Shown here piece by piece: positions 42,901-51,900 of a stretch of DNA of 64,000 bases. The stretch is taken from positions 2,144,001 to 2,208,000 of the forward strand of contig CAVZZO010000001.1 in the NCBI GenBank assembly GCA_963779755.1, in the 5' to 3' direction. Position 1 is the first letter of the stretch. Each line of letters opens with the position of its first letter. Made by a program: the position numbers. This DNA comes from an uncultured Gemmatimonadales bacterium (lineage in GTDB: Bacteria; Gemmatimonadota; Gemmatimonadetes; Gemmatimonadales; GWC2-71-9).

Positions 42901-45900
42901 GCGGCCAGCGATGCCAGGTTGAGCAGGGCCGCGAGGGCGAGCAACGACAGACTGGCCGAGGCCAGCACGGCCGCGGTGCTGGACCAGGGAAACCGTATCA
43001 GCACCCAGACGGCCAGCACCGCGGCCCCGATACCGAGGACCGGCTTCAGGCGGCGGAGCTGCATGGCAGCAGCTGCTCCAGTCGGCCGAAGGAATAGCCG
43101 GCGTCGCGCGCGTCGGCGATGATGCCGGGCAGCGCCTGGGCGGTTTGCAGCCGGTCGCCCTGCAGGTCGTAGCCGTCGCCATCGTGCAGCAGGATGATGG
43201 CGCCGGGCGCCAGATGCCGGCGCACCCGCTCGCGAATGACGGCGGCGCCCGGCCGCGCGGAATCCCACACTCCGAAACTCCACCCGACGGTGTGGAGGCC
43301 CAGCCGGGCGGCGGCCTGTCCCACCCAGGGATTCCGGTAGCCGTGCGGTGCGCGGAACAGCCGCGGCCGCTGGCCGGTCGCGATGCCGATGATCTCGCTG
43401 GTGCGCGCCAGCTCGTCGCGAATCCGCCTCGGCGGCTGGAAGTGCAGCTTCCGGTGCGACCAGGTGTGGTTGCCGATGACATGGCCGGCGGAGGCTACCT
43501 GGCGCGCCACGGCGGGCAGCCGCTCGACAAAACCTCCCACCATGAAGAAGACGGCCGGTACGCGCTCCCGCTCCAGGACGTCGAGCACGGCGGCGGTGGC
43601 CTGGGGGTTGGGGCCGTCGTCGAAGGTGAGAAAGACGGTGGGGTGGCGCGGCCCCCGGCTGATCACCGGGCCGAAGAGTCGGCTCCGCGGATTGTACGCG
43701 CCCCAGGCCATGGCCCCCGCCGTGGCGGCGGCTCCGCCCAGTCCGGGAACCCAGAACACGGCTCAGCGCACCCGCTGGTAGACCCGCAACACCCGGTCGG
43801 TGATGTGGGGCCAGCCGTAGTCCAGCGCCTTCGCGCGTCCGGCGCGCCCCATGTCGGCGCGGCGGGACGTATCGCCTAACAGCTCGAGGATCGTTTGCGC
43901 CCAGCACTCCGGCCGTCCGGGCGGAACCAGCGCCGCTTCCCGCCCGTGGTTCACCAGCTCCCGGAATCCCGTGATATCGGAGACGATCATCGGCGTGGCG
44001 CAGGCCATGGACTCGAGCAGCGTGATCCCGAAGGAGGCTTTGGTGGTCGGGCAGAGATAAAGATCGGCTGAAGCATAATGCTTCGGACGCTCCCCGTTGA
44101 CCCGCCCCACAAAATCGACGCTCGCGGCCACCGGCCGGGCCAGCCGCTCGTAGACCCCGCGGAGCGGCCCATCGCCCGCCACGGTGAGCCGCGCGCCGGG
44201 ATGCACCTGGAGCACCCGGGGCAGCGCCCGGAGGACGGTGTCGAGCCCATTGCGGGGGTCGAGCCGTCCCAGGAACAGCAGCCGGGGGCCCGGCGCCTGC
44301 GCCGGGCGGCTCCCGGCCGCCGGGTGAAAGACGGTGGTATCAATGCCGTTCGGGATCACCTCCCAGTCGGCCCGGAAGTAGCGGCCGTGCGCCGCCACCA
44401 CCGGCTGGCTGACGGCAATGACCGCGGCGTGCCGGTCCAGTCGTTCTTGCAGCGGGCGGCGGAAGACGCGGTACAGAGCGGAACGGGGGAACCAGGAATG
44501 GAAGGTGGCCACCACCGGCAGATCGAGGCGATGGGCGGCGGTCGCCGCCACCAGCCCGAAGGTAGGGGCCAGGCCGCCGTGGATGTGGAGGACCTCCAGC
44601 CGCTCTCGCCGGAAGAGGTCCTCCAGCCGCTCGGTGAGCCGCCAGCCGGTGGTGACCCGGGCAAAGGATCCGCTGCTGTAGATGACCCGGCTGGTACCGA
44701 CCCGGCGAACGAAATGAGGATCGGGATGATCCAGCCCCTGCATGACCGAGGTGATCACCACCGGGTCGTGTCCCCGCCGCTCCAGTTCGATCGCCAGGTT
44801 GTGAACGTGCTCGGTGACCCCGCCCAGGTGGGGATAATAGAACTCCGTGACCAGCCCGATGCGCATACGAGGCCTACCGGTTGAGAACGCCTCCCGTTGG
44901 GCAAGATGACAGCCAGGAGCCTGGGCCCCTCCCGCACAGAGCCAAGGCGGGCAGAGCCAACGACATAGGATGCAGGGAGAACCTCAATCTTCATGCACCG
45001 GGGACAAAATGGCCAGGCAGTAATGGTACGCTTCCTGGCCCATAGGAGCCAAAGTGTCCCGGAATCGTCGCTTCTGCCGCCGCGCTACGCCAGTGGCAGG
45101 ATCCGGTTCTCGGGTATCTCGAAGGTGCGGGTGCCGTCGATGCAGGTCTTGTTGTCCTGAAAATGAGCCCGACCAGGCTGGTGGTTCCATTGGGGAGGCG
45201 ACGGCCCGGGACGTGCCGGGAATGACGCGCTCCGGCAGCCATTGCCTATCTCCTTGGCTCCTGCGAATTTCCAGCATGACATGGGATGCGCTGCTGACCG
45301 ACCTCAAATCCGGGAAGGCCGCGGCCTTGGCGCGCGCGATTTCGATCGTGGAGAACGAGCGCCCCGGGTTCGAACAACTGCTGACGGAGTTGCATCCCTC
45401 CCTTGGCCGGGCCTGGCGGATCGGCCTGACCGGCCCTCCAGGCGCCGGGAAATCCACCCTCACTGAAGAACTGGTCCGCGCCTACCGCGCCCAGGGCCGC
45501 ACCGTGGCGGTGGTGGCGGTCGATCCCACCAGCCCGTTCACCGGCGGCGCCCTGCTGGGCGACCGGATCCGGATGGAGTCGGTGGCCCTGGATGATGGCG
45601 TGTTCATCCGCTCCATGGCGACCCGGGGATCGCTGGGAGGGCTGGCGATGAGTACGCGCGAGGTCTGCGATGTGCTCGATGCGGCCGGCTTCGACCGCCT
45701 GCTGATCGAAACGGTCGGCGTGGGGCAGTCGGAGCTGGATGTCACCCGGATGGCCGATACCACCCTGCTGGCGCTGGTGCCCGAGTCCGGCGACGGCATT
45801 CAGGTGCTCAAGGCCGGCGTGATCGAAGCCGCCGATCTGTTCGTGGTGAACAAGGCCGACCGCCCCGGCGCCGACCGCATGCGGCACGAGCTGGAGGTGA

Positions 45901-48900: not shown

Positions 48901-51900
48901 GCCGAGCGCGACCTGGTCGGCCGGATGCAGGAAGGACTGGGAAGCGGTTGGGCGGTCAACGGCCTCGGCCCGGCCCTGCGCGCCCTGGGGCGCGGCCAGG
49001 TACGCACCCTGCTGGTGGCGGCGGACGCCGCGCAGCCCGGCTTCCGGTGCGCCGATACCGGGCGGCTGGTGCTGGGGCCGCGTGATTGCCGGGGTGAAGG
49101 CGAATCGGTGCCGGTCCTCGACGTGGTCGACGAGGCCATCGAAGAGGCACTGCGGCAGCAGGTGGGAGTCAACGTGGTCTATGATGATCAGGCCGCCGGC
49201 CAGATCGACGGGCTGGCCGGCCTGCTCCGTTTCCGGTAAGCCGTCAAGGAGATTGCCCCGCATGCCGTCTTCCGTTCATACCCCTTCCCGGCCCATCCGG
49301 GTGCTGGTCGCCAAACCCGGGCTGGACGGTCACGACCGTGGCGCGAAGGTCGTGGCCGCCGCGCTGCGCGATGCGGGCATGGAGGTGATCTACACCGGCC
49401 TGCATCAGACGCCCGAGATGATCGCCCGCGCGGCCGTTCAGGAGGATGTCGATGTGGTCGGGCTCTCGATTCTGAGCGGGGCGCACATGACGCTCTTTCC
49501 CCGCGTCCGCGCGCTCCTGGTCGAGCAGGGTCGGCCCGACATCCTGGTGACCGGGGGCGGCATCATCCCCGACGAAGATCGCCAGGCGCTGGAAGCGAAG
49601 GGCATCGGACGGCTGTTCGGCCCCGGCACGCCCACGGCGGATCTGATCAGCTATATCCGGTCCTGGGCCGCCGACCATCTCGACCGGTGAGCCTGTGACC
49701 GCCTCGCCGACTGCTTCCCGTCCCGGCCGCCTGAAATCGCTGACCCGCGAATACCAGGCCCTGGCCGAACGCCTGCGCCAGGGCGGCGGCCCCCGGCGGA
49801 TCCAGAAAATGCACGACCAGGGCAAGCTGTCGCCCCGCGAGCGGGTCGAGCAGCTGCTGGATCCCGGCGCGCCCTGGTTCGAAGTCGGCCTGCTCATGGC
49901 GTACGACCAGTACGAGGGGCAAGCCCCCGGCGCCGGCGTCATTACCGGCGTGGGCCTGGTGGAAGGCCGCGAAGTGGTGGTGGTGGCCAACGACGCCACG
50001 GTCAAGGCGGGGGCCTGGTGGCCCGAGACCATCCGCAAGATGCTGCGGGCGCAGGAAATCGCCATGCGGCAGCGGATTCCCATCATCTACCTCGTCGATT
50101 CGGCCGGCGTGAACCTGCCCTACCAGGGCGGCGTCTTTCCCGGCCAGTACGGCGCGGCGCGGCTCTTTTACTACAACTCGATCATGCGCCGCTACCTTCA
50201 CGTCCCCCAGATCTCCGCGGTCATGGGATCCTGCGTGGCGGGGGGGGCGTATCTGCCGGCGCTCTCCGACGTGATCTTCATGGTGGAGGGCACCAGCTTC
50301 ATGGGCCTGGGCGGCCCCAACCTGGTGAAGGGCGCCACGGGCCAGAGCGTGGAGGCCGAGTTCCTGGGCGGCGCCCGGACCCACACCGAGATCAGCGGGG
50401 TGGCCCACTACCGCGCGGCGAACGATCGCGACTGCCTGGCGCAGATCCGCTCCTACATCGCCCGGCTGCCGCGGTACGAGGGCATCGCGGCGCACCTGTC
50501 GGAGCCCCGGCCGCCCGCCCGCCCGCCGGAGGAGTTGTATGCCCTGCTGCCGCAGGATCATCGCATGTCCTACGACATGCACCGGGTGCTGGCCTGCCTG
50601 CTGGACGGCGGCGAGCTGGAAGAGTTCCAGCCCGGGATGGCGGGCGAGCTGCTCTGCGGCCATGCGCGGATCGAGGGCCGGCCCGTGGCGGTGCTGGCCA
50701 ACCAGCGGGGGCTGATCAAGGGGCGCGAGGGCGAACGCCCCCGCACCGGCGGCATCATCTACACCGGGAGCGCGGAGAAGGCCGCCTTCTTTATCGACAC
50801 CGCCAGCCGCGAGCGGATTCCACTGCTCTTCGTCCAGGATGTGAGCGGGTTCATGGTCGGCCCCGAGGCCGAGCATGCGGGCATCATCCGGGCCGGCGCA
50901 CGCTTCGTGGAGGCCATGTCGACCGCCGTGGTGCCCAAGCTGGTGCTCACCGTGAACCACGCCTCGGGCGCGGGCTACTATGCCATGGCGGGGCAGGGGT
51001 TCGATCCCGATTTCATCCTGAGCTGGCCCACCGGGCGGATGGCGGTGATGGAAGGCGAATCGGCCGTCGGGGCGGTGCACGGACCCGAGCTCGCCCGGGC
51101 GCGCCAGTCCGGCCAGGCGGTCCCGCCCGAGGTGCAGGAGTCGGTCGTGTCCATGCGCGCGGATTACGAGCACCAGCTGGATGCCAAATATGCCGCCGCC
51201 CGCGGCTTCGTGGATGCCATCGTCACGCCGGAAGAGACCCGCCGGCTGCTCGATCTGCTGCTCCGGGTCACCGCGAGCTATGCCGGGCCGCACATCGGTC
51301 CCTTTGTCCTTCCGCCGCTCGACGCGGCGGTCACCCGCTGATTCGCATGCACCGTCGCCTCCTGCCGGGGCTGGCGCTCGCCGCCGCCCTCGGTTGCGCC
51401 CACCCGTCCCAGCCCGCCATCAAGCCGAACATCGATCCGGGCCTGCACCCGATGCCGGATACCAGCCAGTCGGTCACCACACCCCTGGAACCTGCCATCC
51501 CGCCCGAGGAGGCGTTCCTGGAAGGGGCCATGCCGCTTGCGTCCACCGGCATCCCCGCGTTCCTGCACGACCATCCGGACTATGACGGTCGTGGCGTGCT
51601 GATCGGCATTCTGGACAGCGGGATCGATCCGGGGGTGCCGGGCCTCGGCCTCACCACCACGGGCGAGCGGAAGATTCTCGATCTCCGCGATTTCTCCCGG
51701 GAAGGGGCGGTGGCGCTCCAGCCGGTGAGCCCGTCGGAGGACACGGTCCGGATCGGCCGGCGGGTGCTGGCGGGGTTCAGCCGGGTCGTTTCCTTCGATG
51801 CGCATGGGCCCTTCTACGGCGGCCTGGTGGCGGAGCTGCCTCTGGGCGAGGGGCCGGCCGCCGACCTCAACGGCAACGGGACCGTGGGCGATACCCTCCC

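Follow-up and report, generated by a model that had tools for sequence, protein, structure and literature searches.

The eRF1-like gene lodged between the large- and small-subunit genes of a B12-dependent acyl-CoA mutase in this Gemmatimonadales genome probably encodes a Balon-type hibernation factor of the bacterial aeRF1 superfamily, which would be co-expressed with a catabolic operon, would bind ribosomes and would not be a component of the mutase (probability of about 0.68). Proteins of this type have been described before; what is unusual is solely that the gene keeps its place within a metabolic operon. The data show the gene order, the homology, the fold, the lack of the catalytic motifs, purifying selection, the restriction to a single clade and the surroundings of the paralogues; that the protein binds ribosomes, when it is expressed and why the gene sits where it does are inferred. 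Balon was reportedly first described in 2024, and its control is said to be poorly understood. A lineage of abundant soil bacteria in which the only Balon-like gene sits in a catabolic operon would offer a testable case of hibernation wired to metabolism. In what follows, the window is the whole stretch of 64,000 nucleotides that was analyzed.

The acyl-CoA mutase operon

The genes of the operon and the matches that identify them are as follows.

45276..46307, + strand: MeaB-type G3E GTPase, mutase chaperone (PF03308, E 1.7e-93; TIGR00750 MeaB, 337 bits against a cut-off of 240.75)
46304..48010, + strand: large (substrate-binding) subunit of a split B12-dependent acyl-CoA mutase, 568 aa (PF01642, E 2.8e-230)
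48070..49239, + strand: three-domain aeRF1/Balon-like protein, 389 aa (Pfam baeRF_family10, PF18854)
49262..49690, + strand: B12-binding small subunit of the mutase, 142 aa (PF02310, E 1.3e-27; TIGR00640, 173.5 bits)
49695..51341, + strand: carboxyltransferase (beta) subunit of an acyl-CoA carboxylase, 548 aa (PF01039, E 2.8e-131)
51344..54163, + strand: open frame with a large S8 subtilase, start codon not fixed (PF00082, E 6.3e-40)
54172..55530, + strand: AtuA family protein, acyclic terpene utilization (PF07287, E 1.4e-145, on the longer frame 53140-55530)
55572..55913, + strand: AtuA ferredoxin-like domain protein (PF23544, E 6.3e-31, on the frame 54795-55913)
55959..56711, + strand: enoyl-CoA hydratase, with which the conserved part of the operon ends (PF00378, E 8.2e-48)

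The genome-wide survey's note had given the order meaB, large subunit, eRF1-like gene and small subunit, and these four genes do stand in that order on the plus strand, as a single tight operon. MeaB comes first and overlaps the large-subunit gene by 4 nt, and the sequence carries an AAGGAG 10 nt upstream of the small-subunit ATG. The large subunit finds its best solved match in HcmA (4r3u, E 5.7e-172), with human MCM at 4.9e-160, and contains the motifs RQFAGF and YMAQH; at the sites of their Phe and Gln, MCM presumably has Tyr and Arg, and HCM Ile and Asp. The genes around the eRF1-like gene (the large subunit, the B12-binding small subunit and an equivalog of MeaB) belong to the HcmAB/IcmAB type of split mutase with a MeaB-type chaperone, for which we know of no eRF1-fold component. 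The S8 subtilase is a second "foreign" gene of this operon, with 40-56% identity among the related loci that keep it; it is absent between the carboxyltransferase and AtuA genes in two loci of the sister family (L100 and L101).

An aeRF1-type protein that resembles Balon

The match to baeRF_family10 covers residues 126-270 of the 389-aa protein (E 3.7e-17; 63.4 bits, above the gathering cut-off of 27.1), much as the survey had described it, and baeRF_family2 matches as well (1.5e-9). PF18854 is not specific, as archaeal genomes among the controls matched it too. An alternative ATG at 48010, overlapping the mutase stop, would extend the protein to 409 aa; relatives start to align only near residues 6-15 of the shorter, 389-aa form. 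Against solved structures, the single window sequence matched Rv2629 only (E 0.017). Profile A1, built from 70 members of the family, covered the whole of the Balon Msmeg1130 (E 4e-35, residues 11-375 of 375), followed by aRF1 4af1 (3.9e-27, full length), the Balon Rv2629 (4.5e-22) and P. urativorans Balon 8rd8_B (4.7e-15); a profile restricted to the mutase-linked copies (A5) matched aRF1 3agk alone in the PDB (1.4e-6). The only NCBIfam models to match were three for ribosome hibernation factors (E 7.8e-15, 2.6e-13 and 3e-13). Since all three score far under their cut-offs (NF052288, 54.8 against 480 bits; NF052287, 50.2 against 330; NF052289, 49.7 against 320), the window protein is not an equivalog of any characterized Balon.

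The AlphaFold2 model (pLDDT 94.3, pTM 0.88) predicts the full three-domain fold, with an overall shape like that of Balon on the ribosome. Its top Foldseek matches are to ribosome-bound Msmeg1130 (TM 0.69-0.75). The aRF1/eRF1 factors (4af1, 1dt9) share the domain order and the fold of each domain but superpose poorly as a whole (TM about 0.46-0.50, rmsd about 12 Å), and their catalytic GGQ and stop-codon-reading NIKS are missing: a string search of the full window protein found neither, also as the survey had reported for GGQ. The predicted loop at the GGQ position (residues ~171-190) has a lower confidence (pLDDT 71-72) and includes RGGR at residues 173-176, and a GGQ string occurs somewhere in 3 of 68 linked relatives. 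An invariant basic motif forms the N-domain loop that aligns with the aRF1 NIKS region. A predicted hairpin at residues ~320-350 (model strands 324-327 and 346-349) aligns with the matching stretch of Msmeg1130 and sits where aRF1 carries a cysteine-rich insertion, although it keeps only 2 cysteines, whereas the consensus of distant relatives reads CxxC...CPxC. The rescue factors Pelota and Dom34 leave the N domain unmatched and score much more weakly than Balon or aRF1.

With the solved Balon proteins (Msmeg1130, 8v9j and 8v9l; Rv2629, 8v9k; P. urativorans, 8rd8, 8rdv and 8rdw), the window protein shares the three-domain aeRF1 architecture over its full length and, likewise, the lack of GGQ and NIKS. 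It differs in that identity is only 16-21% in structural alignments, in having no HP dipeptide in the N domain (none in residues 1-125; the single HP is at 240) and in lying in an acyl-CoA mutase operon, not in the stress-response neighborhood typical of Balon. In Balon, the HP motif of the N domain contacts the decoding center, the middle domain carries a lasso loop and a bL27 trap, and the β-loop of the C domain holds EF-Tu-GDP while the protein occupies the A site of the 70S ribosome (PMC10901736). The word "mutase" has no occurrence in the main text of that paper (Helena-Bueno et al. 2024), and the mutase-operon context is not mentioned there.

By analogy with the solved complexes, the protein, once made, would enter the ribosomal A site without reading mRNA and place its N-domain loop at the decoding center. 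The tip of the middle domain would come near the peptidyl-transferase center, where no peptide would be released in the absence of GGQ, and the C domain would be turned to the factor-binding site, the position at which EF-Tu-GDP is held by Balon. Silencing and protection of the ribosome would result. Because the gene lies inside a catabolic operon of one Gemmatimonadales lineage (MeaB, split mutase, carboxyltransferase, S8 protease, AtuA and hydratase), the factor would be made together with the acyl-CoA pathway, plausibly at the switch to acyl-CoA scavenging under nutrient limitation. A role in termination is unlikely because GGQ and NIKS are absent and the closest relatives are non-terminating Balon factors. 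This part of the survey's conclusion stands; its other part, the step from placement to work with the mutase/MeaB system, is not supported.

Distribution and origin of the linkage

The adjacency of mutase and baeRF10 genes in Gemmatimonadales, which the survey had counted, agrees in kind with what we found. The large subunit lies upstream and the small subunit downstream of the eRF1-like gene in 60 of 73 related loci, and at least one of them flanks it in 72, the exception being a 2.6-kb contig (L018). All 73 loci are labeled Gemmatimonadales or Gemmatimonadota except a 1.7-kb contig labeled Vicinamibacteria. The adjacency is far above chance, but all the loci are kin. It is confined to two families of the order, and all five genomes examined in the second family show it. 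In the FastTree tree, the mutase-linked genes and two metagenome sequences group as one clade (99) inside a larger one (100) to which the copies from stress islands also belong, and a quick IQ-TREE tree is compatible with this nesting. These results are compatible with a single origin followed by vertical inheritance; consequently, the many linked genomes amount to one event. Elsewhere in the phylum, homologue and mutase are on different contigs in four of five genomes from other classes, and the fifth cannot be judged.

The slot between the subunit genes also accepts unrelated genes. Close relatives have a HAD hydrolase added to it, as seen from Pfam on L004 and from a gap of about 700 nt at 15 of the 44 loci. 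The orthologous operon of the sister family f2 (large subunit 72-73% identical) has its slot filled by a SAM methyltransferase or opposite-strand genes. Co-occurrence wherever the orthologous mutase occurs fails in G040, G016 and G029, whose operons have other genes in the slot; for G040 (99% complete, operon present), a search with profile A1 yielded no aeRF1-like gene, and G016 and G029 have a distant one on another contig. The S8 protease is conserved with no obvious mutase role, so that conserved position does not imply shared function here. More generally, clade-restricted conserved gene order is weak evidence of shared function, given that the slot of sister lineages holds unrelated genes and that the operon carries a conserved protease.

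The nearest paralogues, by contrast with the linked copies, are found in classic Balon contexts, which also speaks against deriving a mutase/MeaB role from placement. Second copies (42-50% identity) exist in 12 genomes of the same family, and none of the 12 has a mutase, MeaB or B12 gene within ~6 kb. In 11 of 12 loci they adjoin one or more of four gene types, namely an HPF(S30AE)-cold-shock chimera, Hsp20, BON and a CBS protein, which becomes 7 of 8 when the loci that defined the neighbor queries are left out. Neighbors of the HPF, Hsp20 and BON types are reported for Balon genes (PMC10901736, section 6; bioRxiv 10.1101/2025.11.04.686544). The window's genome itself has a single aeRF1-like gene, that of the operon, and one HPF.

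Alternatives to a hibernation factor

The protein could instead be a specialized translation factor that still binds ribosomes but has a task narrower than general hibernation, for instance one that pauses or rescues ribosomes on the operon mRNA to balance the two mutase subunits, or that has another role in the A site. We consider this rather unlikely, and we know of no precedent for an operon-specific factor of this sort. It would fit the retention of all three domains, the occurrence of a separate stress-island copy beside the linked one in some genomes and the location just ahead of the small subunit, whose predicted start, at 29 of the 44 loci, shares 1 or 4 nt with the eRF1-like stop. 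It would also fit the loops: the N-domain motif CYLKLEPRD..RGKYLIK.KNR is invariant in the linked lineage and variable in stress-island copies, and the motif facing the peptidyl-transferase center at the GGQ position, TRGGKFHSDR.DSPGWGE, is conserved in stress copies but degraded in linked ones, including the window's. However, the operon copy is the sole aeRF1-like gene of the window's genome, and most genomes of the family showed no full-length stress-type copy. Furthermore, no structured RNA or stall signal came to light in the operon: it gave no Rfam match at E values up to 0.1, and promoter- and terminator-like sites in it showed no excess over shuffles.

The same constraints can be read as those of a Balon paralogue with a changed job, a reading that we regard as unlikely. 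The state of the acyl-CoA/B12 pathway might then govern either the silencing of ribosomes or how the split mutase is synthesized and assembled. After one insertion between the subunit genes, the N-domain loop would have frozen and the loop facing the peptidyl-transferase center decayed, and translation would have become coupled to that of the B12 subunit. One subclade, which is not the window's, has lost the C-domain hairpin (~56% of linked rows), which may correspond to the EF-Tu site of Balon. Among the linked copies, 115 columns are at least 95% conserved, and only 63 of these show the same residue in 75% or more of the stress copies. These constraints of the linked lineage, its position held across two families, the frequent stop/start overlap, the A5 result and an operon unlike the stress operons listed for Balon also count against the main reading as a hibernation factor. 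If true, such a change would mean a direct metabolic input into hibernation, or an eRF1 fold at work on a nonribosomal GTPase system.

It is quite improbable that the eRF1 fold was recruited away from ribosomes as a mutase accessory, for example as an adaptor between the MeaB chaperone and the separate B12 subunit. The strict place between the subunit genes, held across two families (all five second-family genomes included) while the protein diverged to 41-49% identity, would suit such a partner, as would the stop/start overlap, a coupling often seen for partners, and the lineage-specific constraints, with a decayed loop at the GGQ position and, in one subclade, a lost C-domain hairpin. In addition, aeRF1-type C domains are GTPase-binding modules and could conceivably meet MeaB, a GTPase. 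MeaB, however, belongs to the SIMIBI class of GTPases and has no kinship with the translational GTPases to which aeRF1 domains bind. The compatibility of the linkage with a single origin, the unrelated genes in the slot, the G040 operon, the separate contigs in other classes, the conserved protease and the Balon-like shape of the model all count against an accessory as well.

Finally, a decaying or functionless passenger is very improbable: the protein does evolve more quickly than either mutase subunit (41-66% identity, with the large subunit at 74-84%) and has lost loops and hairpin in part of the clade, but its frame is intact in nearly all loci, its conserved columns and confident model argue for a working protein, and its median dN/dS of 0.139 (60 random pairs of 366 eligible), close to that of MeaB (0.120) and with the small subunit at 0.049, shows purifying selection.

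The mutase operon and its genes

The eRF1-like gene (Pfam baeRF_family10) belongs to an operon that had been described in the genome-wide survey's note as MeaB, mutase large subunit, eRF1-like gene and B12-binding small subunit. This description is accurate; all four genes are real, lie on the plus strand and have strong Pfam matches. The baeRF families were reportedly defined by Burroughs and Aravind in 2019.

Core genes of the operon (window coordinates)
45276-46307, plus strand: MeaB; strong Pfam match, confirmed by NCBIfam
46304-48010, plus strand: mutase large subunit; strong Pfam match, confirmed by NCBIfam
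48070-49239, plus strand: eRF1-like gene; strong Pfam match
49262-49690, plus strand: B12-binding small subunit; strong Pfam match, confirmed by NCBIfam

Long spurious frames are frequent in the window because of its G+C content of about 70%. MeaB overlaps the large subunit gene by 4 nt, a 59-nt gap separates the latter from the eRF1-like gene, and a 22-nt gap with AAGGAG precedes the small subunit gene, which is followed after 4 nt by the next gene. Downstream, the operon comprises genes for a carboxyltransferase, a large S8 subtilase, AtuA, an AtuA ferredoxin-like protein and an enoyl-CoA hydratase. An Rfam scan of 44000-57500 gave no match at E-values up to 0.1, and the promoter and terminator scan inside the operon returned no site exceeding shuffled sequences. 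Among the read sets listed, the stretch was represented in two soil-metagenome DNA runs, each with a small share, and in no RNA run. About 3 kb upstream, a sigma-54-dependent response regulator and a HAMP histidine kinase are encoded on the minus strand (39282-42268), separated from the operon by a polysaccharide deacetylase gene and a GT4 glycosyltransferase gene.

The best PDB match of the operon mutase is HcmA, a name that probably does not give the substrate if the residue signatures of these enzymes apply here. The large subunit (46304-48010, plus strand) carries the motifs RQFAGF, with Phe, and YMAQH, with Gln; Phe/Gln is the signature of the isobutyryl-CoA-mutase type, Tyr/Arg that of methylmalonyl-CoA mutase (MCM) and Ile plus Asp that of HCM. 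On these motif residues, both HCM and MCM were rejected as identities of the operon enzyme. The second mutase of the same genome (G000:C3:204265-205779, minus strand) has Tyr (RQYAGF).

Affinity of the eRF1-like protein

Compared as a single sequence with solved structures, the eRF1-like protein had one match, to Rv2629 (E 0.017), a member of the Balon group of ribosome hibernation factors. A family profile (A1) built on 70 relatives, which an exhaustive search of 1.8 billion representatives had supplied, matched Balon Msmeg1130 over residues 11-375 of 375 (E 4e-35), followed by the archaeal aRF1 4af1 (E 3.9e-27), Rv2629 (E 4.5e-22) and P. urativorans Balon (E 4.7e-15). The AlphaFold2 model (pLDDT 94.3, pTM 0.88) had ribosome-bound Msmeg1130 as its top Foldseek match, with a TM-score of 0.69-0.75 and aRF1/eRF1 at about 0.46-0.50. 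Furthermore, the only NCBIfam matches were to three ribosome-hibernation-factor models, all far under cut-off. From the profile, the fold and these sub-cut-off scores it therefore follows that the protein belongs, as a distant member, to the Balon/bacterial aeRF1 group, a protein type already known, and is no equivalog of a characterised one. The reading as a release factor was rejected, as a string search of the protein found neither GGQ nor NIKS.

In the C-domain hairpin (49045-49093, residues 326-341), two cysteines are kept, C327 and C340; the consensus of distant relatives at this hairpin is a four-cysteine, zinc-ribbon-like CxxC...CPxC.

Reach of the mutase linkage and the variable slot

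We compared 73 related loci from species-representative genomes, which are Gemmatimonadales/Gemmatimonadota records save for one 1.7-kb contig labelled Vicinamibacteria. The large-subunit gene precedes and the small-subunit gene follows in 60 of them, at least one of these two flanks is present in 72, and the entire operon was kept wherever the flank was long enough. The S8 subtilase (51344-54163, plus strand), between the carboxyltransferase and AtuA, is 40-56% identical across related loci.

The phylum sample comprised 401 genomes, and its tallies take in three unpublished ones (G057, G182 and G097). Within the window's family (f1), 156 of 165 genomes had a match, mutase-linked in the loci read. 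Two further families of the same order were covered: all 5 genomes of f3 matched, each with the gene directly downstream of the large subunit, and with the window query 0 of 94 genomes of f2 did. For f11 and f12, which belong to two other classes, the 5 re-searched genomes all gave matches at 23-30% identity, with the mutase on another contig in four; in the fifth, both genes lie at the ends of contigs. The nearest placeable relatives outside the phylum, in Aquificota (36% identity), are coupled to an NYN-domain RNase rather than to a mutase. The best Pfam match of the relative in Hydrogenobacter and other Aquificota is baeRF_family12, and its gene overlaps the NYN-domain RNase gene by 4 nt (L083:6001-7221 and 7218-7814, plus strand).

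The space between the subunit genes is variable. In 15 of the 44 fully readable loci, about 700 nt lie between the eRF1-like gene and the small subunit gene. Among the closest relatives of the window this space holds a HAD-family hydrolase gene, identified in L004 (8125-8835, plus strand), which is missing from the window itself, where the gap is 22 nt. An orthologous operon occurs in three of the five f2 genomes examined, with a large subunit 72-73% identical. The slot between its subunit genes is occupied by a SAM-dependent methyltransferase in two of them (G040 and G016) and, in the third (G029), by 6 kb of other genes, among them a chorismate mutase/prephenate dehydratase/DAHP synthase fusion on the opposite strand. 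By family profile search, no aeRF1-like gene was found in G040, which is 99% complete, and one distant aeRF1-like gene was found on another contig in each of G016 and G029. Thus, the mutase operon exists without the eRF1-like protein. Additionally, in the two readable f2 loci (L100, L101) the carboxyltransferase and AtuA genes have no S8 protease gene between them, and this pattern, together with the slot replacements, makes conserved position an unreliable sign of shared function here. The survey had taken the placement to argue for a role with the mutase/MeaB system; this step from gene position to function is unsupported, given an operon that can do without the protein and a slot that takes unrelated genes.

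Stress-island paralogues and the likely function

According to Helena-Bueno et al. 2024 (PMC10901736), Balon is defined by an aeRF1 architecture without NIKS/GGQ, together with an HP motif, a lasso loop, a bL27 trap and an EF-Tu-binding beta-loop, and its genes usually adjoin RaiA, Hsp20, OsmY-type and similar stress genes. A 2025 preprint reports that chimeric HPF genes often adjoin Balon genes (bioRxiv 10.1101/2025.11.04.686544). The word "mutase" is missing from the main text of PMC10901736, three of its supplementary files contain neither "Gemmatimon" nor "mutase", and a literature search combining Balon with Gemmatimonadetes returned unrelated papers only.

Some f1 genomes hold a second copy, 42-50% identical to the window protein. 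Twelve such loci were examined; mutase, MeaB and B12 genes were absent within about 6 kb of each. Pfam neighbours in the first four loci were an S30AE(HPF)-cold-shock chimera overlapping the start of the paralogue, Hsp20, a triple-BON protein and a CBS pair. With neighbour queries defined from these four, at least one such stress neighbour was present in 11 of the 12 loci (7 of the 8 independent of the query definition) and the HPF chimera in 7 of the 12. One chimera, at L099:8427-9212 (minus strand), has S30AE (HPF/RaiA) followed by a cold-shock domain, and its stop overlaps the start of the Balon-like gene. A stress-type query at E 1e-100 or better matched 16 of 201 sampled genomes, several of these matches being mutase-linked copies themselves, so that only a minority of f1 has a full-length stress copy. 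The window's genome has the operon copy only and no second aeRF1-like gene.

In a quick IQ-TREE tree of 87 rows, from which the incomplete rows L029, L031, L054, L070 and L114 were left out, the stress copies formed one clade (SH-aLRT 95). The linked copies fell on one side of a branch with a support of 33, a value at which a single linked clade is neither shown nor rejected by this tree. A FastTree tree of 109 rows took in 69 metagenome representatives and 7 Aquificota sequences along with all 12 stress copies and 21 of the 68 linked rows. It joined the linked copies and two metagenome sequences in a clade (99), nested in a larger clade (100) that also contains the stress copies. With modest rooting and method, this loosely fits a stress-type Balon gene having moved into the operon once.

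Most likely, the eRF1-like protein would silence ribosomes in the manner of Balon, as a factor produced together with the acyl-CoA catabolic operon. Median dN/dS over 60 random pairs of 366 was 0.139 for the eRF1-like gene, compared with 0.120 (MeaB) and 0.049 (small subunit), and shows purifying selection on the linked lineage.

A specialised or recruited role for this lineage is a less probable explanation, favoured by several features. Linked copies share an invariant N-domain motif that varies among stress copies. The loop at the GGQ position, well preserved among stress copies, has degraded in the linked ones, that of the window included. The C-domain hairpin has been lost in about 56% of linked rows, a single subclade to which the window does not belong, only 63 of the 115 highly conserved linked columns are common to stress copies, and the eRF1-like stop and the predicted small-subunit start overlap in 29 of 44 loci. 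However, neither the changed constraint nor the overlap singles out the mutase.

Shortened stress-island paralogues occur in genomes in which the operon copy no longer has its C-domain hairpin. Two of them (L121:3311-4144 and L122:6653-7438, both minus strand) retain the middle and C domains only (261-277 aa) and adjoin the HPF chimera, two others (L123:1120-1554 and L124:6683-7129) consist of a middle-domain-like stretch beside a BON gene, and a fifth genome (G329) has a similar partial paralogue match.
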